Origin: Naegleria gruberi
Lineage: Eukaryota
Strand: one strand, 5' to 3'
DNA: 64,000 bases
Assembly (NCBI GenBank): GCA_000004985.1
Contig: GG738871.1
Below the pieces are notes generated by a model, which had not been told where the DNA came from, made no database searches, and worked only from the letters and a program-made list of their open reading frames with translations. Positions 9,575 through 37,072 of the stretch are shown piece after piece (within the stretch, counting starts at the first letter, position 1; every line of letters starts with the position of its first letter). Made by a program: the position numbers and the translations under genes.

Positions 9575-10765
9575 TTATTGCTTGTAGGTATCAACTGGCT
9601 TCTTATAGGTATCGACTGGCTTCTTGTAAGTGTCAACCTTCTTTGGTGGCTTATAAGTATCGGTCTTCTTTGGTGGCTTGTAGGTATCAACCTTAGTACA
9701 AACTCTCTTCTTCTTAGCACAGACACTCTTATCAGCGTGCTTTCTACAGACTCTCTTACCTCCAACAAAGTTGTACTTGACACAGATCTTTTGACCTGGT
9801 GACTTCTTGACACAATGCTTCTTGAATGATCTCTTAATACATCTTGGCTTCAATGTCTTGTATTGAGTACAATATGGCTTGGCAACATAGTCACAACAGA
9901 ACTTATCTTCTTTGTAAGCCTTACAAACTCTAACCTTTTCTTTGAGATCACAGAATTTGCTTGGAGTCCACTTGGTACAGAACTTGGTCTTTTGCTTGGC
10001 AACGCAATACTTTCTTTGGACAACCTTAACACATTTCTTTTCATAACCAATCTTCTTGGCAAACTTGACGTTTTCATATTTGGTACAGGTCTTCTTCTTG
10101 GCATATTCAACACAAATGGTACGATGCTTCTTTTCCAAAACTTGCTTATAGTAATGATCGATCCAACCCTTGTAATGTTTCTTACTGACTGGAACCCATT
10201 TAGCAACAGTTCTTGAGAGTTTCTTATATTTGGCACAATATTGATGAACAGAGTATTTGGCACATCTCTTCTTATGGAAATACTTAATCTTTGGAACGTA
10301 GGTTTCAGCAGCACATCTTGATGACTTGTCATACTTGGTACAAATGAAATGATAAGCATATTCATCACAAGCATTATTCTTTCCGTGGTGTTTGCACAAT
10401 TCCTTCCATTCATATTTGGCACAAATCTTGTGCTTAGTAACCTTTGAACAGAATTGCTTATAACCGTGACCCAAACAAATCTTTTCAGCTTTGCTGTACT
10501 TGTCACACTTGTGAGTCTTCTTATATTCCAAACATTTACCCTTTCCAACAGTCTTCCAATCGCAGCACTCTTTCTTGGTACCAACCCATTCATAATCAAC
10601 ACATTTACCTTGGATAGTCTTGTAGTGAGTACACTTGTTGTAGCAATACTCTTGATGATCAGAATAGGTATCAACCTTCTTGGAAGGAGCAGGAGCTGGG
10701 TTTGCAAGAACCATACTTGCTGCCAATACACTCAAAACGATTGCAATGATTATACTTGTTTTCAT
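9575..10765 (-). CDS. Secreted, extremely Lys- and Cys-rich repeat protein (396 aa) with ~30 CxKY-type units and C-terminal VDTYKKP tandem repeats
   Basis: ORF with N-terminal signal peptide MKTSIIIAIVLSVLAASMVLA. Regular spacing of Cys and KY/KF/KW residues. C-terminus reads TKVDTYKPPKKTDTYKPPKKVDTYKKPVDTYKKPVDTYKQ, encoded by visible DNA tandem repeats at 9575..9700. Confidence 0.55.
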   Translation of the reverse strand: MKTSIIIAIVLSVLAASMVLANPAPAPSKKVDTYSDHQEYCYNKCTHYKTIQGKCVDYEWVGTKKECCDWKTVGKGKCLEYKKTHKCDKYSKAEKICLGHGYKQFCSKVTKHKICAKYEWKELCKHHGKNNACDEYAYHFICTKYDKSSRCAAETYVPKIKYFHKKRCAKYSVHQYCAKYKKLSRTVAKWVPVSKKHYKGWIDHYYKQVLEKKHRTICVEYAKKKTCTKYENVKFAKKIGYEKKCVKVVQRKYCVAKQKTKFCTKWTPSKFCDLKEKVRVCKAYKEDKFCCDYVAKPYCTQYKTLKPRCIKRSFKKHCVKKSPGQKICVKYNFVGGKRVCRKHADKSVCAKKKRVCTKVDTYKPPKKTDTYKPPKKVDTYKKPVDTYKKPVDTYKQ

Positions 10766-11146
10766 TTTGTTTTTTTGATGTTTGTTCTGGATGAGTTGGT
10801 GTTTGACTTTTTATACGAAATTCAATGAAAGAATGAAGAAGCAAACAAGTGTCGACTATCAATACAAATACGTGTTTTGTGAAATTATGCTATTGATTCA
10901 TATTTGTAACTTTTCGTGAATGTTTGAGTTATTCCCTAAAATGGTTAGAAAGGTGAAGTACAATATTAAAATATTAATTTTCTAAAAATTTCTAAAATCC
11001 TCCATAATTCGTTTGAACCGTTTCCTCCAATCATTCCCATCATTAAATTACAAAATCTACTCTCAATAATCTTAATAAATAGATGAACTTTAAATTTCTA
11101 ATATGGCCATATTAATTGTCAATAAAAACGAAATAGAAATTACCTA

Positions 11147-11596
11147 CTATTCAAAGTTTTTTCTATCACAGTGTACCAACTTTTCCACAGCATCGGGTCT
11201 TTCTCTACAGTAGAGTCCTAACTTGAAAATTTCATTAGAGGCTCTTAATAAACCATCTGAGTGAAATTGATCTCTAGTTAAAGTATTTCGTTCCATTACA
11301 TAATTCTTCATTGGCTTGTAATATTCGAGCTTGTGTACTTGGAGTCTACAAATTGGACAAGAATTATTTACAAGAATCTTATCAAATGAGAAAATTTCAG
11401 GTTTTTGAGTGAAAAATCCAGAGTCATCCTCATCTCCAATCATCTCTTCGTCTTCCATCTTCTCTGCAAATTCTGAAACACAACCAGAACAAAAGCAGAC
11501 GTGATGACAAGGAATACATCTGTATTCACATGGATTATCTCTACAAATGACACAATTTTCACTAGCAAGATTGAAATCATCCTCTAAAATGGTCAC
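11147..11596 (-). CDS. Small RING-finger (C3HC4-like) protein, 149 aa
   Basis: CVICRDNPCEYRCIPCHHVCFCSGC ... CPICR fits C-x2-C-x11-C-x-H-x3-C-x2-C-x(~40)-C-x2-C. Acidic linker between the two halves. Confidence 0.5.
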   Translation of the reverse strand: MTILEDDFNLASENCVICRDNPCEYRCIPCHHVCFCSGCVSEFAEKMEDEEMIGDEDDSGFFTQKPEIFSFDKILVNNSCPICRLQVHKLEYYKPMKNYVMERNTLTRDQFHSDGLLRASNEIFKLGLYCRERPDAVEKLVHCDRKNFE

Positions 11597-11697
11597 TGCT
11601 CTAGTACTGCTATCATTTTCAACTTGTGAATTATTTCCTTGATTCGTTAATGAGGGTAATAGCTATGGTTGAATTGTTCCAATTATTATTTGATATT

Positions 11698-12483
11698 TCA
11701 TTTCAAAATCATTCCAAAACATACATTTACAACTTTTGCCAATTCATTTTCCAAATATTCCTTATACTTTTTCAATTGTGAAAGATTCATTCGTGATATA
11801 TTATTGGCCACTCGTGTGATCCTCTGATTTCCCAATGTAGTAATTAATAGTTCAATACTATTCATTGTTCTCCTCTCTCTATCAATCTGATCCAATGTCT
11901 TGTACAAATGAATTAGGTGATATCTAACCTGATAGCAAGAGACAATCATCAGAATGGCATACAGAGTATTTCGGAGGGAATCTTCAAAATAAATTCCATT
12001 AATTGCAATATAATACACAATAAACCAAGTATGTGGAACCACAAAGTACAAGCAACAGGCAGTCAGTGGCGTAATCAATTTATAAAAGGCCATTCCCACA
12101 TATCCCATCAATCCATAAATTACAACTCTATCCAATGCAACTTCCGATAATCTCTTACCCATTTGCTCACTCATAAACAGAACATTAGCACCACCATTAA
12201 TTGATTGATAATTATCATCAGCAGCAGCACCACTACTACCACTACTACTATTACCAACACTACCATTCATCATTAAATTATTTTCCAATGATGTCGACGG
12301 TGGTGAGGATGATGTAAGAAAAAGCGAGGGAACATTAAAAAAATATACAGCAATCATGTAGAACAAGATGGAACGCACTACTGGATTGGTGAGGAAGGTT
12401 ATTGTGGGGATTGCTACTCGAAGTATACTTCTAGAAGATTCCGATCGATTTGATGCAACTATGCGTCCTAATAATTGATCCAT
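11698..12483 (-). CDS. Hypothetical multi-pass membrane protein, 261 aa
   Basis: ORF with several hydrophobic helices (ILFYMIAVYFFNV, VIYGLMGYVGMAFY, CCLYFVVPHTWFIVYYIAI, YAILMIVSCY). Its stop lies 101 bp upstream of the RING gene start. Confidence 0.4.
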   Translation of the reverse strand: MDQLLGRIVASNRSESSRSILRVAIPTITFLTNPVVRSILFYMIAVYFFNVPSLFLTSSSPPSTSLENNLMMNGSVGNSSSGSSGAAADDNYQSINGGANVLFMSEQMGKRLSEVALDRVVIYGLMGYVGMAFYKLITPLTACCLYFVVPHTWFIVYYIAINGIYFEDSLRNTLYAILMIVSCYQVRYHLIHLYKTLDQIDRERRTMNSIELLITTLGNQRITRVANNISRMNLSQLKKYKEYLENELAKVVNVCFGMILK

Positions 12484-12913
12484 TTTTTAATTAGATAATA
12501 TATTATTGTGCTGAAATAATTGAATTATATATTATTATTAATTTATTATATTTAATATGCTATATAATTGAGTTTAGTTCGAATAATTTATTGCTCAGTT
12601 ATAATTTGCTGTGAATCCAATAATCAAAATTTTTATGGTATGACTTCTTCATAAGGAGTTTGTGTTAAATCATAATAACACATGATGATTGTAAAATTCA
12701 TCTTTCCAAAAGATCAATTTTTAACTGAAGGATCTCCAAATCCTCCATGACTGGAGTACATGCGCATTTTCAAGAGTGACACTTGTCATGCACTAAAAAC
12801 CAAGAGGAAAAACCCTTTCTTTATTGAGAATGCTAAGGTGTTAGTGCATTTAACCAGAGCAATAGGGCAAAGAAAGAAACGGTTCATAGGATAAGCACAC
12901 AAAAAAAAACAAT

Positions 12914-15900
12914 ATGAAACTAGTGAGCTTTCCCTATCATTTGTTGATTGCTGCTTGTGTAGTGTTACTTCTTGGCAAAGTTAGTGCATGGAGATATTCT
13001 GTGAAAACTCTTGCTACAGGTCTAGGCAGTATTTCTCAAATTGTTGGCTCTCCAAAATATATTTATGTTACACTTGGCTCCAGTTCAAAGAAGATTTATG
13101 CCTACGATAGACAATTATTGGCCACTCAGTCTGTACAAACATTGCAACAAGTCCACGATATAACAGCATCATCAAACAATATTGGTTATATTGCTTATCA
13201 TGGCAATGATTCGAATGACGCTGAAGTGATATCAGTAGCTGGCAATAATTTTCCAAACAATGTGGGTTTGTACTGGTTTACATGCTCATCAACCTGTTCC
13301 ACTCCAACACCCTTCTCTTATAATATAAGGGTCTCAGGAATTAGATCCCTAGGAATTGAGAACTCAACTCCCAAACTTTACATAACAAGACAAACAGCAA
13401 TTTACACTGGCACTCCTTCAGCAAATGCTATTGTATCAACAACTGGAACAATCAATTTTAAAGCTTTCAATGATGTTGATTATATTGGCAATACAGTAAG
13501 TTTTAATTATTTTGCAAATAGGTAACATTGGTTTAGGTTTATTTTACTGACTCAGGTGGAAACCTAAAAATTGCAACAAGTTCAACACCATTAATCAGTG
13601 TAGGCACATTTAGTGATGGTGCCAGTGGTACTGCTCGTTTATCTTCAGGCACAACATTCATCTCTGCACAGTTCAATAAGGTATGTAGTTATGAACAATA
13701 TGTTGTTGGAATAATTTTAAAAGATTTTTATCTCAGACACTGGAAACAGTAGAATTAGACTTTATGATATTGCTACAGGAATTACAACTACAATAGCTGG
13801 TGATCCTTCTAAATCAACAGCTGGAACAACAACTTTCAGTTTATCCGACGTACCAACTAATTACAAATTCACACCAACAGGTATTTGGATTGATAACTCT
13901 AATGGTATCATTTATTTTGCAGACACCAGTACCTTGAGAGCTTTAGTTCCAACTTGTAACAGTACTACAGAAGATCAATCTTCAACTTACCCTTTCTGTA
14001 CTTGTAAAACTGGATATTCATTGGTAAATGGAGATTGTGTTGCATCCACTAGTTGTTCTCCAGGATTGTGTAATGACAATCAAACATGTACTGGCCCAGA
14101 AACTTGTTCTTGTAAGAGTGGATATTATGGAACAAATTGTGATAATTATGACTGTTATGGAACTCAGAAGGATAATCTTTCTGTATGTAATGGAAAAGGT
14201 GTTTGCGTTTCTCCAAACACGTGTATTTGCACCAATGCAAACTATGATGGCTTTAATTGTAATATTACAACTTGTAATTCTATTCCATCAACGAGTGGTA
14301 GTGTTTGTTCTGGACATGGAAGTTGTACTGATTATAATACTTGTGCTTGTAGTGATACCAATTCATGGACAGGATCTGATTGTGGAACACCTGTATGTGC
14401 AGCTGTGAGTGGAGGTGTTTGTTCTGGAAGAGGTAGTTGTACAGCTCCAAATATTTGTACTTGTAATGAACCATCAAAATATGGTGGATCTTCATGTGAA
14501 ATTCCAAAATGTAATGGAACACTTCAAGGCAATTCTGGTGTTTGCAATGGAAGAGGTTCTTGTATTGATGTTGATACTTGTCAATGCACTGTTCCAACCT
14601 CTTGGGGTGGTTCATTCTGTGAAAAACCATACTGCTCTGGAATTTTACAAGGTGCAGCTGGTGTTTGTTCAAATAGAGGTGTTTGTTCATCTCCTGATTC
14701 TTGTGTTTGTAATGAACAAACAAAGTATGGTGGTTCAAATTGTCAACTTGTTAAATGTGGAGGTTATTTAGAAACAGACTCTGCTGTTTGTAACAAGAAT
14801 GGTTCATGTATTGCTGTTGATACTTGTTCCTGTAATTCAAATTATGATGGCCAATTTTGTCAATATCCAAAATGTAATGGCATTGCTTCAAATAGTGGTA
14901 GTGTTTGTAATTCACAAGGATCATGTGTTGCACCAAATGTCTGCTCTTGTTTCACAAATTATGCTGGACCATTATGCGAATATCCAAAATGTAATGGCGT
15001 AGCTTCCAATGATGCAAGTGTTTGTAGCTCGAATGGTACCTGTACTGGTGTTAATACTTGTGTTTGTAATGTTAACTATACAGGATCATATTGTCAATAT
15101 CCAAAATGTAATGGAATATCTTCAAACGATGCAAGTGTCTGTAATAACAAAGGTGGTAATTGTATTGCACCAAATGTTTGTTCATGTAATTCAAGTTATA
15201 CTGGTCAATTCTGTCAATTCCCAAAGTGTAATGGTATTGGATCCAATGATGCAAGTGTTTGTAGTGCAAATGGTACTTGTATTGGAATTAATATTTGTTC
15301 ATGCAATTCAAATTATGCTGGTCCATATTGTCAGTATCCAAAATGTAATGGCATTGCTTCAAATAGTGGTAGTGTTTGTAATTCACAAGGATCATGTGTT
15401 GCACCAAATGTTTGCGCCTGTAATTCAAATTATGGTGGTACATATTGTGATAAACCAAGATGTGGAACCTTTTACAAGGGAGATGCTTCTGTTTGTAATT
15501 CGAGAGGTAGTTGTGATGCTGTTGATAGTTGTACTTGTAGTGATACTTCTTCTTGGGGTGGCAATTTGTGTCAATATCCAAAATGTAATGGTGTTCTTTC
15601 AAATATTGGAACTGTTTGTAGCAGTAGAGGTACTTGTCAATCTCCAAACAATTGTTCATGCACTGATCCAAATTCATATGGTGGTTCATATTGTGAAAAA
15701 GCAAAATGTTATGGAATTCTTCAAGGAGATTCAAATGTTTGTAGTGGACATGGTACTTGTAGTGGTGTGAATCAATGTTCATGTAGTGCTGGATATGGAG
15801 GTGAACAATGTCAATATCCAAAATGTTTCAATATTTTGAGTAATGAAACAACAGTTTGTAACAATAGAAACGGTACTTGTACTGCTCCTGACACTTGTTC

Positions 15901-17716
15901 ATGTAAAAATGGATGGACTGGAAGCAAGTGTGATGTTGCCATTTGTTATTCAATTCTCTCCAATTCAACAAGTGTTTGTTCAAACAAGAGAGGTAATTGT
16001 GTCACACCAGATAATTGTGTTTGTAAAAGTCAATATTCAGGTTCTCAATGTGAATATACCACTTGTTCTGGAATAAGATCAGATCAAACATCGACAGTAT
16101 GTTATGGAAATGGTCAATGTATTGATTATAATACTTGTAATTGTACAACTGGTTATGGACCATCCAATGTATGTCAATATCCAATTTGTGGTGGTTATTT
16201 AGCAAATGATGCCAGAGTTTGTAACAATTCAAGAGGTGTTTGTTCCAAACCAAATACATGTAGACCATTAGATCCCGTATGTTATGGTAAAGCTCAGAAT
16301 AATTCAATGGTTTGCAGTGGAAATGGAGCATGCGTTGATTGGGATTATTGTGAATGTAAAACTGGTTTCAATGGAAATGAATGTCAAAATTGGGAATGTT
16401 ATGGAAAGAATTATACCAACTCAAATGTCTGTAACAATGGAAATGGTACCTGTTCATCTGTGAATAATTGTGTTTGTAACAGTGGATGGTATGGAAACGA
16501 ATGTACAGTTCCAATGTGTAATGGAATTCTTGGCAATTCATCTCTCGTTTGTAACAATAGAAATGGTACCTGCTCCAAACCAGGTGCATGTCAATGTAAT
16601 ACTGGATACACAGGACCTGATTGCTCCATTCCAATTTGTTATGGAAAATTAGGCACTGATACAAGTAATGTTTGTTCAGGAAGAGCAGAATGTATTGGTT
16701 ATAACAAGTGTAATTGTGACACTTCCAAGTATAGTGGTTCACAATGTGAATATTTCAAATGTTTTGGTATTCCATCAAATGATGCTTCAGTTTGCAGCAG
16801 AAACGGAACATGCTCTGGAGTGAATCAATGTTCTTGTAATTATGGTTATGGTTCTTCAAATTGTGACACTTTCACATGTTCAAATGTTCTTGCCACCAAT
16901 TCAAGTGTTTGCAGTGGAAAGGGTGTATGTTATGGAATTGACAAGTGTTCATGTGATTCAGGATATTTCAGTACCAATTGCGAGCTATTTTCTTGTTATG
17001 GAATTCCAAAGTCCAACAATACTGTATGTGGAGGAGTTGGTGAATGTTCACAACTTGATACATGTGTTTGTGGAAGCAATTATAGAGGATCAATGTGTGA
17101 ATTATCTTACACCTCTTCATCTCAAGCAACACTTCAATTCAATAATACGAATGAATATGTGAATGAACAATTCACAAGCATGGCCACTTTGACAATTAAT
17201 AATCCTCTCTTCGGTCAATATTATTTGAGAAGAAGTGTTCAAGTTGTTGTTTCATTCCAAATTAATTCACAATTCAGTTATTCTGAAACACTTTATATTG
17301 AAAATGGAGTTTCATCTGTTTCATTAATGGTGAAATCATTGAGTCAAACTGGTACATTGAAAGCATCTGCTCAATTAATTGATAATAGTACATTGATTTC
17401 CATTTCAGATAGTATTCAATCTTCAAATAGCATTACAATTCAAAATAGACCTATTGTTGTTCCATCCACAAAGACATCCACAACCAAACCAACAACCTCT
17501 GCACAAACAAGTAGAGCTGTTATCGATACAGGAAGTAATGGTGGAGCCATTGCAGCTGGTATCATTGTTCCAGTGGCAGTTATTGGAATTGGAGGTGGTG
17601 TCACTGCAGCCATTGTCACAGCAGTTGTTTTATTAAAGAAGAAGGCTGCTGCAGCTGCTGCCAAAGAAATTGCACATGCCCAACACGTCAATGTTGAACT
17701 AGCTGAAGGTTTCTAA
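12914..17716 (+). CDS. Large type-I membrane protein: signal peptide, NHL-repeat-like beta-propeller region, ~35 tenascin-type EGF-like repeats, Ser/Thr stalk, TM, short tail (~1572 aa; exons 12914..13495, 13537..13680, 13724..17716)
   Basis: Signal peptide MKLVSFPYHLLIAACVVLLLG. NHL-like motifs VYFTDSGGN, IFISDTGNSRIRLYD, GIWIDNSNGIIYFADTS. Two tiny in-phase introns of 41 and 43 nt (GTAAGT..TTTAG, GTATGT..AAAAG) bypass in-frame stops. Six-Cys EGF units ~32 aa each, of the form YPKCNGIxSNxxSVCxxxGxCxxxNxCxC. C-terminal TM AIAAGIIVPVAVIGIGGGVTAAIVTAVVLL. Confidence 0.65.
14864..15411 (+). repeat. Intragenic exact ~77-bp repeat (copies ~14864..14940 and ~15335..15411) within the EGF array; part of ~96-bp periodic coding tandem repeats spanning ~14000..17100
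   Basis: The identical string tatccaaaatgtaatggcattgcttcaaatagtggtagtgtttgtaattcacaaggatcatgtgttgcaccaaatgt occurs twice 471 bp apart (five EGF units). The motif ccaaaatgtaatgg (YPKCNG) recurs throughout. Confidence 0.7.
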
Positions 17717-17863
17717 TTGTTCATTATGATAGTTTGTCAATAATAAACTTTAAATTTTGATGTTTAGTGAAATGATGCTCAATTATTTAAATGGTTCGTA
17801 ATTGTCTCTCCTAACAAAATAGAAACTACAACCAAATCACAGGGCATCACAACACAAAATAAA

Positions 17864-20411
17864 ATGCAAGATGATAACATTGAGGGCTTTACTCTAGATT
17901 CGTCCCTCATCGACGATTCTCCTCTCATTGAAGAATACCTTTCAAACTTTAGTTCAACAACCATCGTTTCAGAAGAAGATCACTCTCCACCTACATTATC
18001 TTATTATTCCTCCTTCCAGAAACAAACACCTTCACCTGCTCTGATAACAGCAACCAATATTCCAACAACCAATACTACAATAAGCTCTTCAACCGATCCA
18101 ACTTCTCCAAAGAGGATTCCCTCACTCCGAGAAAAACTTCAAGTACTCGTCGATAAGGCTCATGAAAAGAAAAAGTCGAGCAACAATCTTCTCGAAGAAG
18201 AAGATGGTGCCATCCCCTCCTCTCCTCCATCACAGATGATTTCAACAGTTCCTTCTAAAGTTGAGCCATTAATTGTTGCCTCGAATTTATCAATTGAAAA
18301 AACAACCGACACTATCATTGAGGCTAATAATATTGAGAGGGAAAATGATTTGATGGCTGAACAAGTTGAAGACCCAACAACTGCAAACACTAAGCAAGAT
18401 AATACTCAAAAGCCTCTGTATAATAGAAAAAGCAACAAACAAGACTATGAGCTGCAACAAGCCATTCAGAAGGAACTAGCCACATCAGCAGCAAAAATGG
18501 CGGCAAACCTCCCTCCAAAATCAAAGCCTGAATTAAATAGAGCAAAAGAATTGAAAAAAATGGATGAACAATATCACTTTGAAGGATACAAAAATATTGA
18601 GGAATCACAACACTATCATAATGATGATGATGAGGAGGAACAAGAAGATTTAAATGATAGCATCCATAGGGATGAAGATGAGGAGTTTCATAATCAATTA
18701 AATGCTGATATTTCCCTTATTGAGGAAGATAAGAAGGACGATACACAATATAATTCATTTACTGTAGAAGAGGAAAAGCTTGAATTGAGCGATGAAGAAG
18801 GGGATTTAACAGGAAGAGCAATGGAAGACTTGACAGTCTCGAAATTAGAAGCCTCCACAACTTCGGTCGATCAATCTCTCACCTTATCCTCCTTAACAAC
18901 ACCAGTAAGAACATCTTCTCCACTAAACCAAAGAGCCCGACCAAATTCTTCAATGAGAAGCAGTACTCCTAGTTATATGAACTCCACAAGAGCTTCAATC
19001 TCTAAGGAGATTTCGAGAGCATCAGTAGATTTGAGATGTAAGTAGTGTTGACCATTCATTAACAATGTTCTTCTTTCTAAATAGCCTCGGCATCAGACAT
19101 GAGGATGAGATTCGGAATGATTAACTATCAACAAAGACCACCACCAGCCAACAGATCACCTTCTCCAAATATTGTGCAAAAGAGAAGAGTTACACCAAGA
19201 AAAGAAAGAATTTATAATATAGTACCAGCATTACATTTTGAAGACATTTCGGTAACAACAGGTTTGGGAGTAAGTACATGAATTCTTTGAAAATGATAAT
19301 TATCATTTAGACAATATCTGTTCCGAACTATAGACTCACCTCTCTTAAAGGCTTGGGAGTTAAAAGAGATTTGAAAATCTTGTACCTTCAAAACAATTAC
19401 CTTGCCTCATTCAATCACCTCGAAACTCAACCTAATTTAGAAGTACTTTATGTGGCAAACAATTGTATTAGCTCTTTCTTTGGATTCAAAACTCAACCAA
19501 AATTGACCTTAATCAGTCTCGAAGGAAATCCTATTACCAAACACCCTCATTACAGACTGATGACTTTAATTGTTTGTGGAAGCCAATTAAAAAAGATCGA
19601 TGGTGAAATGGTTCAATACAAAGAAAGAGAATTCGTGAAACACTATCTTTCAGCTAATGAAAGGGCTGTAGAAGCCATACGTTCTGGATGGCTAATGGAT
19701 CCAAAACCAAGAACAAACGAAGAATTCCAAGATATAATCCGAGGTCTCTTACTTCAAAACTTTGATGACAGAGAAAGCATCAGAAACACTCAATCATTTA
19801 AAGATTTAGTAAGTGGAGCACTAGCAAAAACTACACCAGCTGTAGATTTGAACGATTTTGAAGAGAAGAAAAAGATTCAACACAAAGAAGAAATCCAATC
19901 ACCAGATTTATCCCATGGAAGTAGTGGAGGATTCAATTCAGCTTTCCTAACAAATTATATCAACGAAATTAAGCAACTTAAAGGACAACTGGAGAAGAAG
20001 GCAGAGGAATTGAAAGAAGAGAAACAAAAATATAAGGACTTGAAAGAGAGCAGCATAGGAATTGATGAATTGAATCTCCTAGACAAAACAATCATATCAA
20101 ATATCGCAGTCTCTCTCAATTCGACAGAAGAAATTGTGGAAAATGTGACCATTGCTTTCACCTTGGATACAATGGAAATTTCAACAACTGAGGAAATTTT
20201 GAGAGATATTGAGTACGAGGCAGTTACACGAACAAGCTTATTGGTTGATGAACAAAAGCTTTTCAGAGTACACATCAGAATGAACACCAGTGAATTGTTG
20301 GATATCATAACATCAGATAAGAAACAATCACTCTCGATATACAAGATACTTCACATGAAAGTTGCTCATGCCAATAAGCAAAAGAAGCTGAGACAACAGG
20401 CAAACAAATAA
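17864..20411 (+). CDS. Low-complexity N-terminus + leucine-rich repeat + C-terminal coiled-coil protein, 3 exons (17864..19037, 19085..19269, 19311..20411)
   Basis: Introns of 47 and 41 nt (GTAAGT..AAATAG; GTAAGT..TTTAG) join ORFs 17864.., 19099.. and 19353.. in phase. LRR segment LTSLKGLGVKRDLKILYLQNNYLASFNHLETQPNLEVLYVANNCISSFFGFKTQPKLTLISLEGNPI (SDS22-like). Lys/Glu-rich coiled coil near the C-terminus. Confidence 0.5.
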
Positions 20412-20420
20412 ATATTCAAG

Positions 20421-26140: not shown

Positions 26141-26168
26141 ATTGACAGACACAGATACAATTAGTAGT

Positions 26169-27831: not shown

Positions 27832-27927
27832 TTTTTTTTGAACTTGGAAATTGGCTTATTGATGGGGAAAGTTTTAATTTTTGGAAAGATCTATTTTTGA
27901 GAATATAATTTATTTTGGATTTTTTTA

Positions 27928-27946
27928 TTCGAAACTTGGTCGAAAC
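27928..27946. promoter_or_regulatory. ATTCGAAAC(n3)TCGAAAC motif ~100 bp upstream of the kinase gene ATG (27831, minus strand)
   Basis: ttattcgaaacttggtcgaaactg. This is one instance of a recurrent motif; see findings. Confidence 0.2.
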
Positions 27947-28108
27947 TGTGAACTAGAGTGTACTAGTTCTGTAAATTGGATTGAGGGTTTTCTTCTCTGA
28001 TATTTTGAAAATTATTTGAATTAAAAAAAAATAAAGGGATGTATTTATTAAATTAGAAAGACTATTCCGATTTAGTAAATTTGTAATTACTCTTGTTCTA
28101 TCGCACAG

Positions 28109-28504: not shown

Positions 28505-28547
28505 TATGCATTCGGAGAAGACATGTTCCCATTTGAATTAAAAAAAA

Positions 28548-30010
28548 ATGATTCATTCGAAACTATTCGAAACAAGTGTCACCCTCATTCTCGATCAACA
28601 AAATATCGGAAACACTTTATTAAAACAAAAATACCAATTTACAAAATTCAAAAAACTCCAAGAAAACTACATTCCAATAGAATTTCACAATGATCGAGAG
28701 TTTATTACAATTTGCATCAGAGAATTGCAGAAATGACAAACAAATTGTCTTGACAGCTGTCAAACAAGATTGTTCCACTTACAAATTCGCTTCTCCTAAA
28801 TTAAAACTGGATTTTGAGATTTTACTTTCATATCTTGAGAAAAATAGACATTCATTTAAGATGATTGTACCAAATTCAAATAGATGACAAGGAATTTATA
28901 ATGTCAGCAATCAAAATGGGATTTTCTTTGAAATATGCTTCTGATAGATTGAGGGATGATAAAGAGGTGGTTATGGAAGCAGTTTCGAATGGATATGAAT
29001 TGTTTAATGTATCTGATAGGTTGAAATCTGACAAGGATGTCGTGTTAAAAGCACAACAAACTTTTGAAAAGGCATATTTGTTAGCACCACAACATTTAAA
29101 ATATGACTTTGATATTAAGGCAGCAAGATATGAATTTAACACAAGAGGAATTGCCAAATGTCATGACAGAAATCAAATTTTAAGATTAATTGAAACAAAA
29201 GGATATTTATTTAGTTATGCCAAACCGAAATTCAAAAATGATAAGGAAATTATTTTAAAATTCATTGAAATTAATGCGTGGCAAGCTGTAGAAAATGCAT
29301 CACCTCAATTAAAAGATGATTCGGATATAATTAGGAAATCAGTGGAGAACTGTGGATTAACTATTCGATTGGCATCCGAAAGATTGAAAAATAATAAGGA
29401 AATTGCACTCATAGCAATGAAGACGAGTGCTTGTAAGGCAATAATGGATATTTCTGATAATCTTAGACAAGACAGAGAGTTTTTAATAGAGGTTGTTTCG
29501 TATGGATCTATTCTAAATGAACATTCCTCAATCGAGTTGAAAAGTGACAGGGAATTAAGGAATCGGTAAAATATAGAGGAGTTGATATACAGTTTGCATC
29601 CAATGAGTTGAAAAATGATAAGGAGCTAATATTACTTGCTGTCAAAACTCATGCATATGTTGTCAGTTTCATTTCCCGTAATTTCCTCTTTAATTCGGAT
29701 TTTCTATTGGAATTATTGAAGCTTAATCCAAATATTGTGAAATTCTTGGATGGCCACCATCGAGATTCAGAATTTGTACATTTAGCTACGAAAGGAGATT
29801 CTCTAATTTATGCCTCGAATAGATTGAGAAATTTAAAGGAATTTGTTTTCGAATGAATGGTTGTGCACTGAAAGGAATAGGAAGTACCTTGGAGAATGAT
29901 TCAGAACTTGTCATTGAGGCAGTCAAGCAAAATGGATATTTCACAAACTTTAATTTGTTCAGCTTAAGAATGGAATTGGAATATCCAGAATTACAAAACA
30001 TTACAAAGTT
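28548..30010 (+). pseudogene. DUF4116-repeat gene disrupted by at least four frameshifts (probable pseudogene)
   Basis: Consecutive ORFs 28548.., 28690.., 28865.., 29608.. and ~29859..30010 lie in three different frames. All encode DUF4116-type units (e.g. ASDRLRDDKEVVMEAVSNGYELFNVSDRLKSDKDVVLKA). The frame changes occur within <30 nt windows (~28730, ~28870, ~29580, ~29857), too short for introns. An intact paralog is at 61765..62883. Confidence 0.45.
28553..28571. promoter_or_regulatory. Tandem ATTCGAAACT-ATTCGAAAC motif ~50 bp upstream of the 28504 ATG (minus-strand gene)
   Basis: attcattcgaaactattcgaaacaagtg. The same dimer occurs inside the kinase intron at 27308..27326. Confidence 0.2.
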
Positions 30011-30085
30011 TTAATTGCCTATTGTTTCAAAATCTTTTTAAATTAAATTGTTAGTGCTGTGTTTCATCTTTGTATTTTGATGATT

Positions 30086-30601
30086 TTAAATTTGATTTTT
30101 TAATATTATTTTTAAATGCTCGTTCATTTGATTGATTCTTAATTGAGCTTTTGGATAAGAAACATAATGATCAGATATTTGAATTCTTTGAACACTATCC
30201 AAATTCGCAAGAATGTTAATAAATATTTTACCAGATGGCACTCCATTAACCTTAGTTGAACAATCCAATTCACATTCGAAAGATCGAATATCTCTATAAT
30301 GAAACGTACTATTCGAAATAAGTTTTCCATTAATTGCTCTCTTTGTTCTCACCACAAATATGCGACTGTTGTCATTGAAAATAAAATCCGTACTTTTCTG
30401 TAAAAATCCAAATATAGGAAATAAAGAAAAGAATGCTATCAGGGCAATTAATATTCCAATTGAAAATTCCTGTTGTTCCCCAGATATAAAGATAAACAGC
30501 AATACTCCAATAAATAACGATCCAACGAATATAAATATGAGAGGAAATGTTAAATCATCATCTTTGATCATGTAAATTCCCGGCACTTTATCAACTCTCA
30601 T
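30086..30601 (-). CDS. Hypothetical small membrane protein (171 aa, two hydrophobic helices)
   Basis: ORF with TM-like segments LTFPLIFIFVGSLFIGVLLFIFI and FSIGILIALIAFFSLFPIFGFL. No recognisable domain. Confidence 0.35.
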   Translation of the reverse strand: MRVDKVPGIYMIKDDDLTFPLIFIFVGSLFIGVLLFIFISGEQQEFSIGILIALIAFFSLFPIFGFLQKSTDFIFNDNSRIFVVRTKRAINGKLISNSTFHYRDIRSFECELDCSTKVNGVPSGKIFINILANLDSVQRIQISDHYVSYPKAQLRINQMNEHLKIILKNQI

Positions 30602-30747
30602 CCATGTAGGGTGGAATGGGTGCTGCTTGCGACATTTTTTTTATATTTTGAAATTGAAAAAACACGTGTTTAAAATTCTTAAATATTGTAAACAAGTTCA
30701 TTATTTAAATTTTACAATGAAATTTCTAATATAATACAGTTGATTGG

Positions 30748-32613
30748 TTATACAGTTTCATAAAAAGTTTCAATGTTGGTGAGTGGAATGAATTCAATGG
30801 TTGGAAATTGAGAAAATATTTCCATAAATTCAGGACATGAATCTGGATTATAGTAGAACTTTTCCAAACTTGGAGGGAATGAAAATCCACCATAATCTCT
30901 ATAACAACTCATGAAATAGTCAGTAAAGGAATATGCAATTGTCAAAGCCTTCAAGTTTGGGAATTTAACAAAGGAAGAAGGAATAGAATACTCAAAACAT
31001 GCTGTTTCGTCATCTCTGAGAACGAGATCTTTCAAGTCTGGACTAATACCTGAAAGGATATCAAAGCAATTTGCATAGGTTTGAGCATTCATGTCTACAT
31101 ATACCAAATCTTTCATAAATGGAAAGCAAATCTCATTTGCATAGAATGATTTGTAATAGTTTTCATAAATGATTGGAATGATAACTCTCTTTTCCTTCTT
31201 TTCAATATAGTACTTGAAGAAGGATGATTTCAACACGTCTTCCATGAAATTCATTGTGGTTTTTGCTTCTTGGACAGGTAGGAATATTTTCTCTCTTAAA
31301 GATCTCATTTCCAATTTCTTTTTTTGATTGGCCAAATTATTGACAAGATTTCTTATCGACATTTCAAATATTGGATCATCGAGAACACTTCTCATGAGTA
31401 ACTCTCTCCAATATTTGTTGGTAGAGGAGATATTAACACGAGTGTAAGTCGGCAAGTAGGAGAATACCAGCTTAGTACAATCTTCATTCAAAAGTCTGTA
31501 ATTGAATGCTGTAATTAACTTGGTTTTAGGGTCTAACTCTGTAGCTTTTTTGAGGTATTCTTGTTTTAGCTCAAGTTCACCTTTTCTTCCATAGGTTTGA
31601 GAGATCATTTGAGCAGTCTCGGCATTTTCTTCCAACTTCATTGCTTGTGAGAAAGCTTCAAGAGCTTCATCAAGCTCGTGGTTGTAGAAGTAGCATAATC
31701 CCTTATTGTAAATGTAGTGTCTGAGATTTGGTGAATCTTTTCCATACTGAGCAGCTGTTTCAAAATTCTTTATAGCATCATGATAACAAGCTGCAAAGTA
31801 GTATGAACAACCAGCTCTATAATTCAATTCTTCCAATGAAATCAATGAAACTGTTGTCTTTTCTTCCTTTTGAGCAGCCAAATCAACCTTTTCCCCTTTC
31901 AGCAAGGACTTGAAATTATTGAAATAAGTTTTGGTATTCTCTGAAAATTCGGTAAATTGTTCCTTCACTTTTTCATGGGAGTGTTTCATTTCAAAATTAA
32001 TATCAAGAATGTTCTTTTCCAATTCTACTGATTTCTTATCACAATTACCACTTCCAGTCATTGCCTCCTTCAATTCAATACCTTTCTTGAAAGCATGAGC
32101 AGATTCTAAATAATCCCCACAATGATACAATGCCACACCATAAACAAAATTCCACACATAGGTCGCATCCAAACTTTCATCCAAATGCAATGCAAGTTTG
32201 ATATCCTCCAAAGCTCCCTCATATTTCATAGCAGCCAATCTCACCACAGCTCTCTGCACATGCAATCTGGCAACTTGTGGATCTTGTGTAGTGTCGGCCT
32301 TGATCTTTCCTTCCAATTTACTCTCGGCAATTAATTGTTTTCGGAATAAAATCTTCTCCTTCAAGTCCTTTGAAATATGACTCACTCCACTCTCAATCTT
32401 TTCATTATTCTTTCTGATGCTAACATCAATGGAATGAACCAAATTGATGACCCGAGAAACAGCTAAAATTCCCACTCCTAAAGGAAAGAAGAGAATGAGA
32501 AGAGGTCCTGAAATTGGTGAGCCACACATGTTGTTTCTTGACTTTGGATAACGATGATGAATTTGGTGTTTATAATAAACAGGTGTGATAGATATCAAAA
32601 TCCTGGTTTTCAA
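30748..32613 (-). CDS. Membrane-anchored TPR-repeat protein with F-box-like motif (up to 621 aa)
   Basis: N-terminal hydrophobic anchor GPLLILFFPLGVGILAVS. TPR-like helical repeats (e.g. YYFAACYHDAIKNFETAAQYGKDSPNLRHYIYNKGLCYFYNHELDEALEAFSQAMKL). F-box-like EDCTKLVFSYLPTYTRVNISSTNKYWRELL. The true start may be an internal Met (MCGSP...). Confidence 0.5.
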   Translation of the reverse strand: MKTRILISITPVYYKHQIHHRYPKSRNNMCGSPISGPLLILFFPLGVGILAVSRVINLVHSIDVSIRKNNEKIESGVSHISKDLKEKILFRKQLIAESKLEGKIKADTTQDPQVARLHVQRAVVRLAAMKYEGALEDIKLALHLDESLDATYVWNFVYGVALYHCGDYLESAHAFKKGIELKEAMTGSGNCDKKSVELEKNILDINFEMKHSHEKVKEQFTEFSENTKTYFNNFKSLLKGEKVDLAAQKEEKTTVSLISLEELNYRAGCSYYFAACYHDAIKNFETAAQYGKDSPNLRHYIYNKGLCYFYNHELDEALEAFSQAMKLEENAETAQMISQTYGRKGELELKQEYLKKATELDPKTKLITAFNYRLLNEDCTKLVFSYLPTYTRVNISSTNKYWRELLMRSVLDDPIFEMSIRNLVNNLANQKKKLEMRSLREKIFLPVQEAKTTMNFMEDVLKSSFFKYYIEKKEKRVIIPIIYENYYKSFYANEICFPFMKDLVYVDMNAQTYANCFDILSGISPDLKDLVLRDDETACFEYSIPSSFVKFPNLKALTIAYSFTDYFMSCYRDYGGFSFPPSLEKFYYNPDSCPEFMEIFSQFPTIEFIPLTNIETFYETV

Positions 32614-33001
32614 CGTTTTTTTTTGAAGAAATACTGGAACTATGCATCACCAAGTTCATCACAGTAAAAATTCTGCAAATTAGCATCATATGTACTGTTG
32701 TAAATCCAACGTATACATTCACATTACCTCTTTCTTAAATGACCAAAATGGAGAATGCTCAAGGTCTTTTCTTATTGATTGCACTCAAGTAAATCCCTAA
32801 TACAATTCAGTTTTGAGAAAGGATATGAAGATGAAACATGAAGGATTGTATTGTGGTTGATTAATAAATTTTAATTGAGAGGTAGCTCAATATGAACTTT
32901 ATCCTTAATAATGAAATATTGAGCAACTTGGAACTTGAGCATCTACTAAACCAAAGTGAGTCTGTTATCACCAGACATATGTGAACAATTTAGTTTAAAT
33001 C

Positions 33002-34580
33002 TCAAACAATGAAAGAAAATATTAATCCCATATTCGAACCTATACTAATACCAAAGAGCAAGAAAAAGGTCATCATTGTTCCAGCAATTTCCTTCTCGTT
33101 ATTCTCTACACACTGAGGAGCAAACATCATCAATAATGAGCACAAGTAACCATTCGAAATTGAGACAAGGAAAATTGAAAAGAGTGGGAAGGCGTCGTAA
33201 ACATAATCATTATAACCAAATAGGCTAGGTCTATAATAAAATAAAAAGAGTGGTACGAAAAATACTCTCAATAACACTGGAATGGCAATGGTCTTCTTGT
33301 TGAAAGCAATAATCCAGTTTGGCATGGTTCTGCCAACAAATTCAAAAATGTTATTACTAGCTGCCATCAAAATTGGAAGCCAATATCTCATTGGTGTAGA
33401 GGAATACCAAGTTCTAACTCCAAGAGCTAAACCAGGGAAGAGTGAAATGGTCACCACAAACAGGAGCATTACCAGCAAGCACAAATACCAAATCTTTTTG
33501 AAAACAGTCAAAATAGATGCACTATTAGCATTTGAATTGTTACCATCTTCTAATTGTTTCTTCTTTGATAAATTAATATAATATTTACAATATGGATGCC
33601 TCACAACATAGATAAAACTCAAAATGCACAACAGGATTATAATAGAGCACACAATAAAGTAACTAGCAGTACTGTGAGTCATTCTCATTAGAGAGACATG
33701 CACTCTGTTCTGTTCAATAGTCAACTTGGTAACAATTCTCAAAAAAGAACACAACAATCCAGCAAGACCAGCACCTACCATGACAGCTTGGACGTACATG
33801 GAGGGAAGCATAGAGGCCAATCCAAAAATTCCAGATTGTAAAAAGCAATTACACAACGCACAAAACACTATAAAAGTTATTGTAATTATAAATCCAGAAG
33901 TTGATTCAGCATTTGAATATCCAATTATAGGAATGCTCAATAAAATCAATAATGTCACAACGTAGGCAGGAAATACTCTAAAATTAAGTGGAATTTTGCC
34001 TCCAAATTTAGTAAATACCAACAATCCCAATAAATTAGGAACACTATAAGCCACACTAAAGTACATCATTGCACTTTCTCCATAAATTTTAGTGAAATAA
34101 TCAGGTGCAGAAATAAAACTATTCCAAGGAAACAATACTCCACATCCTTCAAATTTAATTTTGTATCCAATTATTCCAATTTCAATATCAATCCGAAATA
34201 TATGCGTGATATAATTCAATTAAAACAAAATAATACAAAATTAATATTAAAACCAATATTCTTATTTTGACAAACAACATACCCTGCAAAACAAATATGA
34301 AATACAACAATTTTCCATTCACTTGTGGTTCCGAATCCAAAATAATACTCTTAGCCTGTTCCTTCCTTCTCTCTTCATTCAAATGACCTTCATCATCCAT
34401 ATCCTCCGAATAAGCCATCGAATCCACACTCTGCCCACCATGATGTAATCCCATCATCTTGTTGTTACTCATCAAATGAGGAGCATTATGTTGTTGCTGG
34501 TGGTGTTGTATGAGATGATTACTCTCTTCCTCACCTCCTTTTGTATTTGGCGCGAAATTCACAGAGCCTTTGGAAAACAT
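33002..34580 (-). CDS. Equilibrative nucleoside transporter (ENT/SLC29 family), 2 exons (34580..34283, 34146..33002), ~480 aa
   Basis: A 136-nt intron (GTATGT..TTTGAAG) joins ...LLYFIFVLQ-G-CGVLFPWNSF. The C-terminal region SNGYLCSLLMMFAPQCVENNEKEIAGTMMTFFLLFGISIGS closely parallels the ENT1 C-terminus (SNGYLASLCMCFGPKKV...AGAIMAFFLCLG). ~11 TM helices. Confidence 0.7.
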
Positions 34581-35053
34581 TTTTTCTTCACAGATTCAAA
34601 AGAACACACTCTTATTGACCAAGAAGTTTGTTGTTTGTATGATGATGAGGTATTAGACTTCTTCTTTATCCGCTGCTCTTGCTCTTGGAAGAAAAGGATG
34701 AAGTTCTGTTTGTTAACGTTGTTGCTTGTTGGGGTTCATGTTTGAGGGAAGAAGTACATTAAAAAATTGGACCCTTTGCTTTTCTGGGATTTGGGTAGCA
34801 ATGGTGCTTATTTGGGTTACAGTAATTGGTTTATTTACAGTGAATATTTGAAAAGGTCAATTAAATAGTTAAGTGTTTTATGAGCTCTATTGTTGACAAT
34901 TTATTGTAATGCAGTGAGAGAATTATTCTTGCTTGAGAATACGAAGGAATTAGTGAGAGAAGAAATGAGAAGTACTCCAAATTGACTTCCTTTTTCCCAA
35001 TAAAACAATTGGGTAGGACATAATAATAGCTGTTAACCATCATCATTAACTTT

Positions 35054-35062
35054 ATTCGAAAC
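35054..35062. promoter_or_regulatory. ATTCGAAAC motif ~60 bp upstream of the UGDH start codon
   Basis: tttattcgaaacaaactaaa at 35051..35070. ATG at 35120. Confidence 0.2.
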
Positions 35063-35119
35063 AAACTAAATGTTGTAATAAAACTAAAAAAAAAATTCAC
35101 ATCAACAACAAAATACACA

Positions 35120-36577
35120 ATGCAAACATCAAGCACACCTCTGATAGTCAGTAAAATCGCTTGTATTGGTGCCGGGTACGTCGGTGGACCAACAATGACA
35201 GTCATTGCCAACAAATGTCATGATATTCAAGTTGTCATCTATGACATGAATCAACACAGAATTGATGAATGGAATAGTGATCATTTGCCAATCTATGAAC
35301 CTGGCTTGGAAGAATTAGTATTCGAAAGAAGAGGTAAAAATCTTCATTTTACAACTGATTATGCTCAAGTTGTTGATGCTGACATTATTTTCCTTTCGGT
35401 TAACACACCAACTAAATATTATGGTGTTGGAAAGGGTAGAGCAGCTGATTTAAAGTATATTGAATCATGTGCTAGACAATTGAGAGATACTATTAAATCA
35501 GGAAGAAAGATTATTGTTGAAAAGTCAACTGTACCAATTAGAACATCAATTGCTGTAAAGAGAATTTTGGAGAGTGGTGACAGTCAAGCTCAATTTGATA
35601 TCTTGTCTAATCCAGAGTTTCTTGCTGAAGGAACTGCTATTTCCGATTTGAATGCTCCTGATAGAGTTTTAATTGGTGGTGAATCTGATTATGCTATTCA
35701 AGCATTGTCAAGTGTTTATGCCAGATGGGTTCCAAAGGAAAATATCATTACTACTAATTTGTGGTCTAGTGAATTGAGTAAATTGGTTGCTAATTGCATG
35801 CTTGCTCAAAGAATTTCATCAATGAATGCCATTTCTGCATTGTGTGAAAAGACTGGTGCTGATGTTCAACAAGTTTCATATGCAGTTGGTAAGGATACAA
35901 GAATTGGTGCTAAATTCTTGCAAGCTTCTGTTGGTTTTGGTGGAAGTTGTTTCCAAAAGGACATTTTGAATTTAGTTTACTTGGCAGAACATTACAATTT
36001 ACCAGAAGTTGCCAAATACTTTTATGGAATTATTGAAATTAACGATTATCAAAGAGATAGATTTGCCAAGAAGGTCATTCACAAGTTATTTAACACTGTT
36101 TCAAATAAGAAGATTTGTATCTTGGGTTTTGCCTTCAAGAAGAATACATCAGACACTAGAGAATCATCAACCATTTACATTTGTAAATCATTGTTGGAAG
36201 AAAGAGCTCAAATTTGTATCTATGATCCAAAAGTTACTGAAAATCAAATGAGATACGATTTGAAGAGTTTGATGAATGATTCCTATGGAGGTGATTTCAG
36301 TGCCATTTCTGAAACTTCACCAGAAAGTGAACTCGTCTCTAAGAATGTCAAAGTCTTCTCTGATCCATATGAAGCCATGGCTGATGCTCATGCTATTCTC
36401 GTTTTAACTGAATGGGATGAATTCAAGACTTATGATTATCAGCGTGTCTTTGATTCCATGAAGAAACCAGCTAATTTGTTTGATGGTAGAAATATTCTCG
36501 ATAGAGAACAATTGGAACAAATTGGATTTGAAGTTTATCAAATTGGTAAACAAGAAAAGAATCTTGCCGATTGGTAA
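35120..36577 (+). CDS. UGDH: UDP-glucose 6-dehydrogenase
   Basis: Single-exon ORF, 485 aa. N-terminal Rossmann motif [14 protein letters not shown]. Conserved [23 protein letters not shown] with catalytic Cys. The C-terminal UDP-binding domain has the eukaryotic UGDH motif [18 protein letters not shown]. Overall it closely resembles eukaryotic UGDH. Confidence 0.9.
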
Positions 36578-36655
36578 TTTCTCAATAAATTATAATTTTA
36601 TACTCAAGAATTATTTCAAAATTTTACAAAATTGGAAATTCCAGAATTGGCAAAA

Positions 36656-37072
36656 TTATTTACGCTTGTAAACGTCAACCTTTCTATTCTTTTTGTGATG
36701 TTTTCTATTCTTTCTATTCTTTCTGTTCTTTCTGTTCTTTCTATTCTTCTTTCCATAAGTATCAATTCTTCTCTTCTTGTTACTTCTCTTCTTCTTTCCA
36801 TAAACGTCAATCTTCTTTCTGATAATTCTCTTCTTTCCATGTCTCTTCAAACCTCTTCTCTTTCCATAGGTATCCAAATACTTGTTGAGTTTTCTGTGAT
36901 TTCTTCTCTTTTTGTGATTTTTAACTCGTTTGAGCTTTCTTTGCTTGTTATTGGTTTTGGCAATGTACAAGGACATGGTTTCTGCTTCCTCTGCTTGAAC
37001 ATTGGAAGTCATGGACAAGGCAATGATAGCCAAGGTTAAGGCAATTAATAGAATTGAAACGAATCTTTTCAT
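36656..37072 (-). CDS. Small secreted, extremely basic tandem-repeat protein (138 aa) with IDTYGKK/VDVYGKK/NRKNRK repeats
   Basis: Signal peptide MKRFVSILLIALTLAIIALSMTSNVQA. The rest is >50% K/R/N with repeats LDTYGKRRGLKRHGKKRIIRKKIDVYGKKKRSNKKRRIDTYGKKNRKNRKNRKNRK. The underlying DNA is a TTCT-rich tandem repeat at 36690..36760. Confidence 0.45.
   Translation of the reverse strand: MKRFVSILLIALTLAIIALSMTSNVQAEEAETMSLYIAKTNNKQRKLKRVKNHKKRRNHRKLNKYLDTYGKRRGLKRHGKKRIIRKKIDVYGKKKRSNKKRRIDTYGKKNRKNRKNRKNRKNRKHHKKNRKVDVYKRK

Follow-up and report, generated by a model that had tools for sequence, protein, structure and literature searches.

A predicted palindromic cysteine ladder and a shared tyrosine motif in two apparently secreted, hyper-basic proteins of Naegleria

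The cystine-ladder hairpin peptides (tachyplesin, polyphemusin, protegrin, gomesin and θ-defensin) are secreted antiparallel hairpins of 17-18 residues that contain Lys or Arg together with Tyr or Trp. Their strands are joined by two or three disulfide rungs, 2-4 residues apart, and the molecules are amphipathic. A 64-kb stretch of nuclear DNA (contig GG738871.1; hereafter "the window") from a Naegleria gruberi-like amoeba encodes a protein, here called A, that is predicted to share the cross-strand disulfides, the antiparallel hairpin, the residue types and the secretion of these peptides. However, the arms of A would be about 137 residues long with about 15 rungs, one every nine residues, and A is not amphipathic and has no sequence relationship to the peptides. 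A second protein encoded in the window, B, is a Cys-free polycation that has a short motif, φDxY, in common with A. Tentatively, A is regarded as a structural rod and B as its multivalent partner in an extracellular matrix or cyst wall, the two being joined by their φDxY/Tyr-Lys motifs.

Several cross-linked extracellular structural proteins have a composition similar to that of A or B, among them the mussel protein Mfp-1, extensin with its VYK and PP elements, resilin with DSYGAP, and the oocyst-wall proteins with periodic cysteines. The Cryptosporidium oocyst wall proteins (COWPs) of Cryptosporidium and Toxoplasma and the cyst-wall proteins of Giardia and Entamoeba are, like A, secreted products of multigene families with a Cys every 9-12 residues or so, and are presumed to form an insoluble wall stabilised by disulfides. 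Unlike A, they consist of tandem domains, are not hyper-basic and lack φDxY, and no Pfam or sequence match relates them to A. Mussel Mfp-1 (AKPSYPPTYK), plant extensin (SPPPP..VYK) and insect resilin (GGRPSDSYGAPGGGN) have known Tyr cross-linking or DOPA sites, where the Tyr stands in the same Lys/Pro context as in the VDTYKPPKK of A and its family variants. These proteins are basic and secreted and vary in the copy number of their tandem units, as does A. However, A carries only 1-5 such copies, mounted on a Cys ladder and with an invariant Asp at position -2, and is not homologous to them. Protein B resembles the silaffin-type and protamine-like polycations, which also have a signal peptide, a short acidic stretch and K/R-rich repeats and probably interact with polyanions. 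It differs from them in having no Ser/phospho motifs or polyamine-modified motifs and in its unique φDxY units, and no homology was found. To our knowledge, Naegleria does not biomineralise.

The first-pass annotation of the window, made from the letters alone, named no known family for A or B, in agreement with the searches. At E≤0.01 no Pfam family was found for A or B, nor for the A-type part of seven divergent homologues, and sequence searches of the PDB gave no related chain. There was no meaningful fold match, and literature searches on the Naegleria cyst wall, encystment and dityrosine found nothing relevant. The two families are thus unannotated and undescribed, although their general kind (secreted, Tyr/Lys-rich extracellular proteins, with periodic Cys) is familiar. 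A single palindromic hairpin of about 15 rungs, with a nine-residue period and φDxY at its ends, has no described counterpart that could be found by sequence, fold or literature, and there is a fair chance that A represents a genuinely new fold or assembly principle.

Cysteine pattern and predicted fold of protein A

The precursor of A contains 23% Lys, 8.6% Tyr and 8.1% Cys (32 residues) and has a net charge of +70. The mature chain, without the putative signal peptide, has 374 residues, a mass of 44 kDa, an isoelectric point (pI) of 9.7 and a net charge of +69. The spacing of the cysteines is dominated by nine residues: the autocorrelation of their positions at a lag of 9 is 17, compared with 2.9 in shuffled sequences (maximum 9). 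The repeating unit has the consensus C-x-K-Y-x-K-x-K-φ. An aromatic residue (Tyr, Trp or Phe) occupies the third position after 17 of the 32 cysteines, or about half of the nine-residue units. The earlier count of about 30 CxKY-like units is therefore right only in a loose sense, as there are seven exact CxKY units and the 17 that conform to Cxx[Y/W/F].

The order of the gaps between the cysteines is a palindrome around a Cys-free centre, with its axis near residue 198. Of the 16 possible Cys pairs, 14 mirror each other at i+j = 395±1, whereas permuting the gap order gives 9.3 (P≈0.001). Mirroring extends to the irregular gaps (12/12, 11/10, 10/10 and 17/18). Six homologues of A are likewise palindromic, with 14-15 mirrored pairs out of 16-20 possible against about 9-10 after permutation (P≤0.004). 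The palindrome, which the first-pass annotation missed along with the nine-residue period, is the most interesting property of A.

The lengths of mirrored segments change together. Among 15 homologues, with identities down to 30%, insertions and deletions in mirror-related segments co-vary with a Pearson r of 0.80, and none of 5000 permutations of the mirror assignment fits as well (P<0.0002). In the homologue P0031, the mirrored gaps 12/12 and 11/10 have both become 9/9. Gaps of 9/9 have become 11/11 in P0024, 17/24 in P0007 and 15/21 in P0021. A mirror pattern of this kind cannot originate from tandem or inverted duplication of DNA; it is the hallmark of two chain halves that run antiparallel and are linked rung by rung.

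Structure prediction with AlphaFold2 (AF2) from the 15-sequence alignment independently produced one two-stranded antiparallel hairpin, with strands at residues 102-192 and 206-297 and a predicted local distance difference test score (pLDDT) of 75-87. With a 9-sequence alignment only the central part, residues 153-246, was obtained, and that run (pLDDT 43) was too weak to interpret alone. The model in which the chain of A forms a long antiparallel ladder, its arms stapled by mirrored cysteines, is well supported. Mature A would fold back on itself once, bringing the N-arm (residues ~41-177) antiparallel to the C-arm (~218-356). From the tip outwards, the inner disulfide rungs would be 177-218, 168-227, 151-245, 142-254, 133-263, 124-272, 115-281 and 106-290, followed by the outer rungs 97-299, 87-309, 78-318, 67/68-328, 55-340, 45-349 and 41-356. 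At 0.33 nm per residue, an arm of 137 residues would measure up to about 45 nm. The most likely shape of A in this model is thus a stiff, two-stranded, cationic and Tyr-studded ribbon or rod about 45 nm long with about 15 cross-arm disulfides.

The second Cys of each CC doublet (residues 68 and 291) lacks a mirror-related partner and is missing from some divergent members of the family. Being unpaired in the mirror pattern, Cys 68 and Cys 291 may serve in intermolecular bonds. The mirror-paired 12-residue segments 55-67 and 328-340 (CVDYEWVGTKKEC and CVKYNFVGGKRVC) are alike when read in the same direction. With a V-G at its centre, each may form a mini-hairpin bulge that matches the other. 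At the tip of the predicted hairpin, D203 and Y205 are invariant or nearly so among homologues.

When the AF2 model was compared with solved structures using Foldseek, the best match had an E value of 0.07 and the template modelling (TM) scores were ≤0.1, showing no meaningful neighbour. The chance-level matches are other long hairpins: the very long two-stranded stems of the β-pore-forming toxins lysenin, aerolysin and anthrax protective antigen are the only solved structures that the model resembles. An identity of A as a pore-forming toxin was rejected on account of the chance-level scores and the lack of amphipathic alternation.

The resemblance to pore stems, weak as it is, also bears on the main rival to a structural role, according to which A and B are antimicrobial or prey-handling effectors, A being a giant analogue of tachyplesin, protegrin or θ-defensin and B a polycationic peptide. 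Secreted or delivered to the phagosome, they would act on bacterial prey by binding, agglutinating or permeabilising its negatively charged surfaces. The signal peptides, the extreme charge of both proteins (+69 and +45, at pI 9.7 and 11.7), the predicted cross-strand cystine ladder with Tyr and Trp, and the presence of a multigene family in a bacterivorous amoeba are consistent with such a function. However, in length A exceeds any known β-hairpin antimicrobial peptide about 20-fold, and its rungs are spaced by 9 residues rather than 2-4. It has no alternating hydrophobic/polar pattern, its hydropathy outside the signal peptide reaching a maximum of only 0.21, and hydrophobic residues are almost absent from B. 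Furthermore, both proteins are under purifying, not diversifying, selection (see below). An effector function is a serious contender, yet it is considered unlikely.

Signal peptides, the φDxY motif and protein B

Both proteins are apparently secreted. Each N-terminus has a hydrophobic core of 15-20 residues, with a 15-residue hydropathy of about 3.0, followed by a V-x-A site, and there is no comparable hydrophobic stretch in the rest of either chain. The signal peptides proposed earlier are therefore apparent in both A and B, as judged by eye from the hydropathy and the V-x-A sites. That of A is predicted by AF2 to be helical at residues 4-20 and is kept in all homologues, and that of B is conserved in its paralogues.

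Mature B has 111 residues, a pI of 11.7 and a net charge of +45, with 47% Lys plus Arg and no Cys. It had been described as more than 50% K/R/N, which holds for the mature chain (58%) but not for the precursor (48%). The chain would be a disordered polycation in which four φDxY motifs are set between K/R/N spacers.

The C-terminal tail of A was said to consist of VDTYKKP repeats, and five units of the type [V/T]DTYK(PP)K(K) were indeed counted. A sixth VDTY lies just after the signal peptide. The tail contains both VDTYKPPKK and VDTYKKP, that is, tandem short repeats with Tyr beside Lys or Pro in an apparently secreted protein. Its repeats are tandem at the DNA level as well, in units of 21 and 27 bp. 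Their number varies between homologues, of which there are two subfamilies: a short one, to which A belongs and which has 1-5 tail units, and a long one (P0007, P0021), which has extra DxY-x-P inserts and no tail units. The N-terminal motif, [VTA]D[TS]Y, is present in every full-length homologue.

The repeated φD[T/V]Y(G)K motif noted at first pass is indeed common to A and B. In the form [VILFT]D[TVS]Y it occurs six times in A and four times in B, compared with 0.06 and 0.003 times, respectively, in composition-matched shuffles, none of 20,000 of which reached the count in either protein. Among the six-frame open segments of at least 40 residues in the window, A and B are the only ones with at least two copies. 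A word-indexed database search with the DTYK tail alone gave three candidates and no match, and was uninformative.

A common origin of A and B, which had been suggested on the basis of this motif, was not borne out. The program hhalign aligns only the signal peptides (residues 1-35, probability 60%) and nothing of the mature chains. A is built on a framework of 32 cysteines, whereas B has none, and the flanks of the motif differ, being φDxYxP in the A family and φDxY[G/K/R][K/R] in B. What the mature chains have in common is a linear motif of 4-6 residues, which is no evidence for common descent. The occurrence of the conserved φDxY on two unrelated secreted scaffolds points to a system, hitherto undescribed, by which proteins of the heterolobosean secretory pathway are recognised, paired or modified.

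In the A family, φDxY sits outside the ladder rungs, at the termini, at the tip and in the mirrored bulges, and is usually followed by x-P. Family variants of the form DxY[KAVQN]P occur, and DSYGEH, DPYAPPK and DSYVPKP are further variants listed for the family. The N-terminal VDTY of A (residues 31-34) lies roughly opposite the first VDTY of the tail (359-362), with i+j of 393 against 395-397 in the ladder. In the long subfamily the segments with the mirrored inserts carry three DxY in the N-arm, two of them in the insert itself, and two in the C-arm, and the turn at the tip is flanked by one DxY on either side. Such positions suggest that motifs on the two arms are opposed, leaving the surplus copies in the tail free for other molecules.

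The flanks of the motif in B could also be read in a different way, as those of a pro-peptide precursor. Dibasic cleavage and C-terminal amidation of the units IDTY-G-KK, IDVY-G-KKKR and LDTY-G-KRR would release tetrapeptides of the form xDxY-amide, and the recurrence of the epitope in A would have an unrelated cause. Three of the four motifs in B have Gly after the Tyr, although Gly makes up only 4.5% of the mature chain, basic residues flank every motif, and a signal peptide is present. Dibasic flanks are to be expected anyway at 47% Lys plus Arg, however. In four N. gruberi-type paralogues (P0010, P0012, P0013 and P0020), motif 3 has Arg in place of this Gly, and motif 4 lacks it. The motifs of the A family continue with K/A/V-P rather than with Gly and basic residues, and a literature search on peptidylglycine gave nothing relevant. 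Such a precursor is very improbable.

Families, selection and the proposed role

A is an orthologue or co-orthologue of N. gruberi NAEGRDRAFT_74241, with 88% identity. Other N. gruberi members of the family are NAEGRDRAFT_71888, 64508 and 48501 and the divergent 67458 and 76199. N. fowleri has FDP41_004030 and FDP41_003065, and N. lovaniensis C9374_000273 and C9374_009239. Further environmental members were found, and a metagenome scan with a 6-sequence alignment gave three loci; no A-like genes were found on viral contigs. The B family comprises the N. gruberi paralogues NAEGRDRAFT_71365, 71069, 68008 and 68479 as well as more distant environmental relatives, all with conserved φDxY motifs. 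The relative P0014 was extended by the gene caller, its true end being ...VDFYKKK followed by a stop codon, as in the other members. The named members of both families are all annotated as "predicted" or "hypothetical" proteins.

In N. fowleri, FDP41_004030 (L001, 10001-11343) occupies 1343 bp for 379 codons, implying an intron of about 200 bp, whereas gene A and its N. gruberi-type relatives are intronless. Four environmental contigs that bear family members are of gene length (1.2-1.5 kb), and one of these, with a 6-nucleotide leader and a trailer of about 95 nucleotides, resembles an assembled mRNA. No poly(A) was seen in the gene-length contigs.

The first-pass annotation had allowed that the reading frames might be artefacts of simple repeats, lacking conservation in related species. 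A low-complexity composition and the tandem DNA repeats in the tail of A and in B would fit non-functional frames of this sort. However, A and B are conserved in related species, with orthologues in three named Naegleria species, and about 13 Cys columns are invariant across the 15 homologues of A, down to 30% identity. Close relatives recovered from a public metagenome were used to estimate the ratio of nonsynonymous to synonymous substitution rates (dN/dS). For A, compared with L002, it is 0.175 overall and 0.12 in the Cys core; for B, compared with L004, it is 0.18 at a dS of 0.9. Values of 0.12-0.18 indicate purifying selection on both proteins, which are thus not simple-repeat artefacts. 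The gene-length metagenome contigs, which resemble transcripts although they lack a visible poly(A), argue in the same direction, and the artefact explanation is effectively refuted.

Matches to a profile of the A family have to be checked for the palindromic pattern, because unrelated sequences with periodic Cys also score well. P0034 (2774 aa, from an ENA metagenome), P0037 and P0038 match the profile with E values of 1e-6 to 4e-11 through a Cys periodicity of 9-10 residues alone (e.g. ...SSSTCFDYATLEAC...) and were rejected as relatives. P0038 contains Alu-like translated sequence, and translated minisatellite is also found among these lookalikes. In P0030 (NAEGRDRAFT_76199), SAM and PB1 domains occupy the N-terminal part, and an A-type ladder is represented by its C-terminal half. 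Two adjacent genes have probably been merged in this gene model, so that the architecture is probably not real.

A would be a building block of insoluble, disulfide-stabilised extracellular material, most plausibly in the cyst wall or in a matrix at the surface or for adhesion, and B a multivalent partner within the same material. A structural role is supported by the finding that neither protein has a catalytic or known binding domain in Pfam, PDB or fold searches. Acidic or neutral glycans of the wall would be ligands of the Lys-rich surfaces. The exposed φDxY(K/P) motifs may link one molecule to another, through homotypic β-pairing or through oxidative Tyr or Tyr-Lys cross-links. Such joining sites would lie at the open end of the rod, in the mature N-terminus and the five-copy tail, and at its other end, in the IDHY of the tip. 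Joining by a Tyr cross-link is proposed by analogy with VYK of extensin, DSYGAP of resilin and the YK and PP elements of mussel Mfp-1. Among the structures that Naegleria builds, the cyst wall would be the obvious candidate. In a further, doubtful extension, A would be a new architecture that polymerises through its φDxY ends, its unpaired cysteines and the linker B into the protein framework of the cyst wall.

A number of points weigh against this assignment. The AF2 model from the 15-sequence alignment has a mean pLDDT of 60.7 and a predicted TM score (pTM) of 0.21, with pLDDT below 50 in the outer thirds of the ladder. The disulfides are inferred, not observed. With an odd spacing of 9, alternate rungs would fall at hydrogen-bonded positions, which are unfavourable for disulfides, so that the ribbon would have to be bulged or twisted. 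In the long subfamily (P0007, P0021) the C-terminal tail is devoid of DxY, and pairs of sticky ends are therefore not universal. Both A and B are strongly cationic and would repel each other without a bridging polyanion or a covalent link. A distance of 26 kb separates the two genes, which have unrelated neighbours, and no 8-10-mer is common to at least three of the five upstream regions compared. Nothing found here ties A or B to cysts, and no paper or supplement was found that mentions any of 12 locus tags and UniProt identifiers of the two families.

In a different explanation, A and B would condense or neutralise a polyanion such as polyphosphate, acidic mucopolysaccharide or extracellular nucleic acid. 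Packaging of this kind would take place in secretory vesicles or outside the cell, with φDxY being incidental or a signal for sorting or processing. The charge density of A and B is in keeping with it, as is the gene next to B, which encodes UDP-glucose 6-dehydrogenase and is convergent with it. This enzyme makes UDP-glucuronic acid, the precursor of acidic polysaccharides. However, at the paralogous metagenome locus L004 the relative of B is adjoined by a different gene, for a membrane-protein-like product, and the adjacency in the window is therefore probably coincidental. Packaging would also leave unexplained why a rigid ladder of 15 rungs is conserved in length and why φDxY is so strictly conserved. 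It is judged to be quite improbable.

If A and B do make up the protein framework of the Naegleria cyst wall, they would be the first of its components to be known at the molecular level and would provide a new self-assembling rod module; no study identifying cyst-wall or extracellular-matrix proteins of Naegleria was found. N. fowleri, the "brain-eating amoeba", is generally considered to owe its persistence in water systems to the cyst wall. As components of the wall or matrix, A and B could be lineage-specific markers or targets, A having orthologues in N. fowleri. Whatever the function, a palindromic cystine ladder of 15 rungs with a nine-residue period would be an unusual, design-friendly, rod-like fold with no solved analogue.

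Features and neighbourhood of the two genes

The positions of the genes and their parts are given in Table 1. Open reading frames (ORFs) of 396 and 138 codons are present at 9575..10765 and 36656..37072, as first reported, and both lie on the minus strand, which had been left unstated. A plus-strand reading was rejected, as both intervals are open only on the minus strand.

Table 1. Positions in the window of genes A and B, their parts and other features
Feature	Position	Strand	Remarks
Acetoacetate decarboxylase (ADC)-family protein	2799-3989	-	396 aa; Pfam ADC 2.8e-73
Gene A	9575..10765	-	single-exon coding sequence, 396 aa; stop codon 9575-9577
A, C-terminal tail	9578..9697	-	residues 359-395; five tandem [V/T]DTYK(PP)KK units
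A, C-arm of predicted ladder	9698..10114	-	residues 218-356; 16 Cys; spacing mirrors N-arm (i+j≈395-396)
A, predicted hairpin tip	10115..10234	-	residues 178-217; 41-residue Cys-free centre; KHY-KGW-IDHYY
A, N-arm of predicted ladder	10235..10645	-	residues 41-177; 16 Cys, mostly C-x8-C units
A, mirror-paired segments 55-67 / 328-340	~10565-10603 / ~9746-9784	-	conserved across homologues
A, N-terminal φDxY	10664..10675	-	VDTY, residues 31-34; predicted open end of hairpin; conserved
A, putative signal peptide	10700..10765	-	residues 1-22, MKTSIIIAIVLSVLAASMVLA/N; hydropathy 2.93, N-terminus only
Teneurin/tenascin-type EGF-repeat ORF	13934-17716	+	1260 aa; Pfam EGF_2 6e-60, EGF_TEN 1e-49
UDP-glucose 6-dehydrogenase gene	35120-36577	+	convergent with gene B; ends 79 bp from B stop codon
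Gene B	36656..37072	-	single-exon coding sequence, 138 aa; hyper-basic, Cys-free
B, basic region	36668..36877	-	four φDxY motifs
B, VDVY	36668-36679	-	residues 132-135; context VDVYKRK
B, (KNR)n	36702-36748	-	9-bp repeat
B, IDTY	36755-36766	-	residues 103-106; context IDTYGKK
B, IDVY	36800-36811	-	residues 88-91; context IDVYGKK
B, LDTY	36866-36877	-	residues 66-69; context LDTYGKR
B, putative signal peptide	36992..37072	-	residues 1-27, ...SNVQA/EE; hydropathy 3.01, N-terminus only
F-box/Ras protein	37308-38555	-	415 aa; F-box (N-terminal) and Ras/Roc-type small GTPase domain (C-terminal)
U3 snoRNA	46982-47210	-	
tRNA-Leu(CAA)	47567-47647	+	
tRNA-Glu(TTC)	51607-51680	-	
5S rRNA gene	53009-53127	-	dispersed

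The DNA of the window is compact, with a GC content of about 34%. The encoded proteins are typically eukaryotic and include F-box/Ras, RING, teneurin-type EGF, UDP-glucose dehydrogenase, kinase and nucleoside transporter proteins. A prokaryotic context was dismissed in view of the U3 snoRNA and the F-box/Ras, RING and EGF proteins. More than ten unrelated genes lie between A and B. A functional gene cluster around A or B was sought by analysis of synteny and neighbourhood, and none was found. The neighbours of family members at the N. fowleri and metagenome loci differ from those in the window.

The EGF-repeat ORF situated between genes A and B encodes another large, Cys-rich and probably extracellular protein. 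The combination of an F-box with a Ras/Roc GTPase in one protein, near gene B, is an unusual domain fusion; an F-box plus G-alpha protein is also found near the N. fowleri orthologue of A. The RNA genes of the window (U3 snoRNA, 5S rRNA and the two tRNAs) are all within 6 kb of each other. That the acetoacetate decarboxylase-family protein and protein A are equally long is a coincidence, the two being unrelated.

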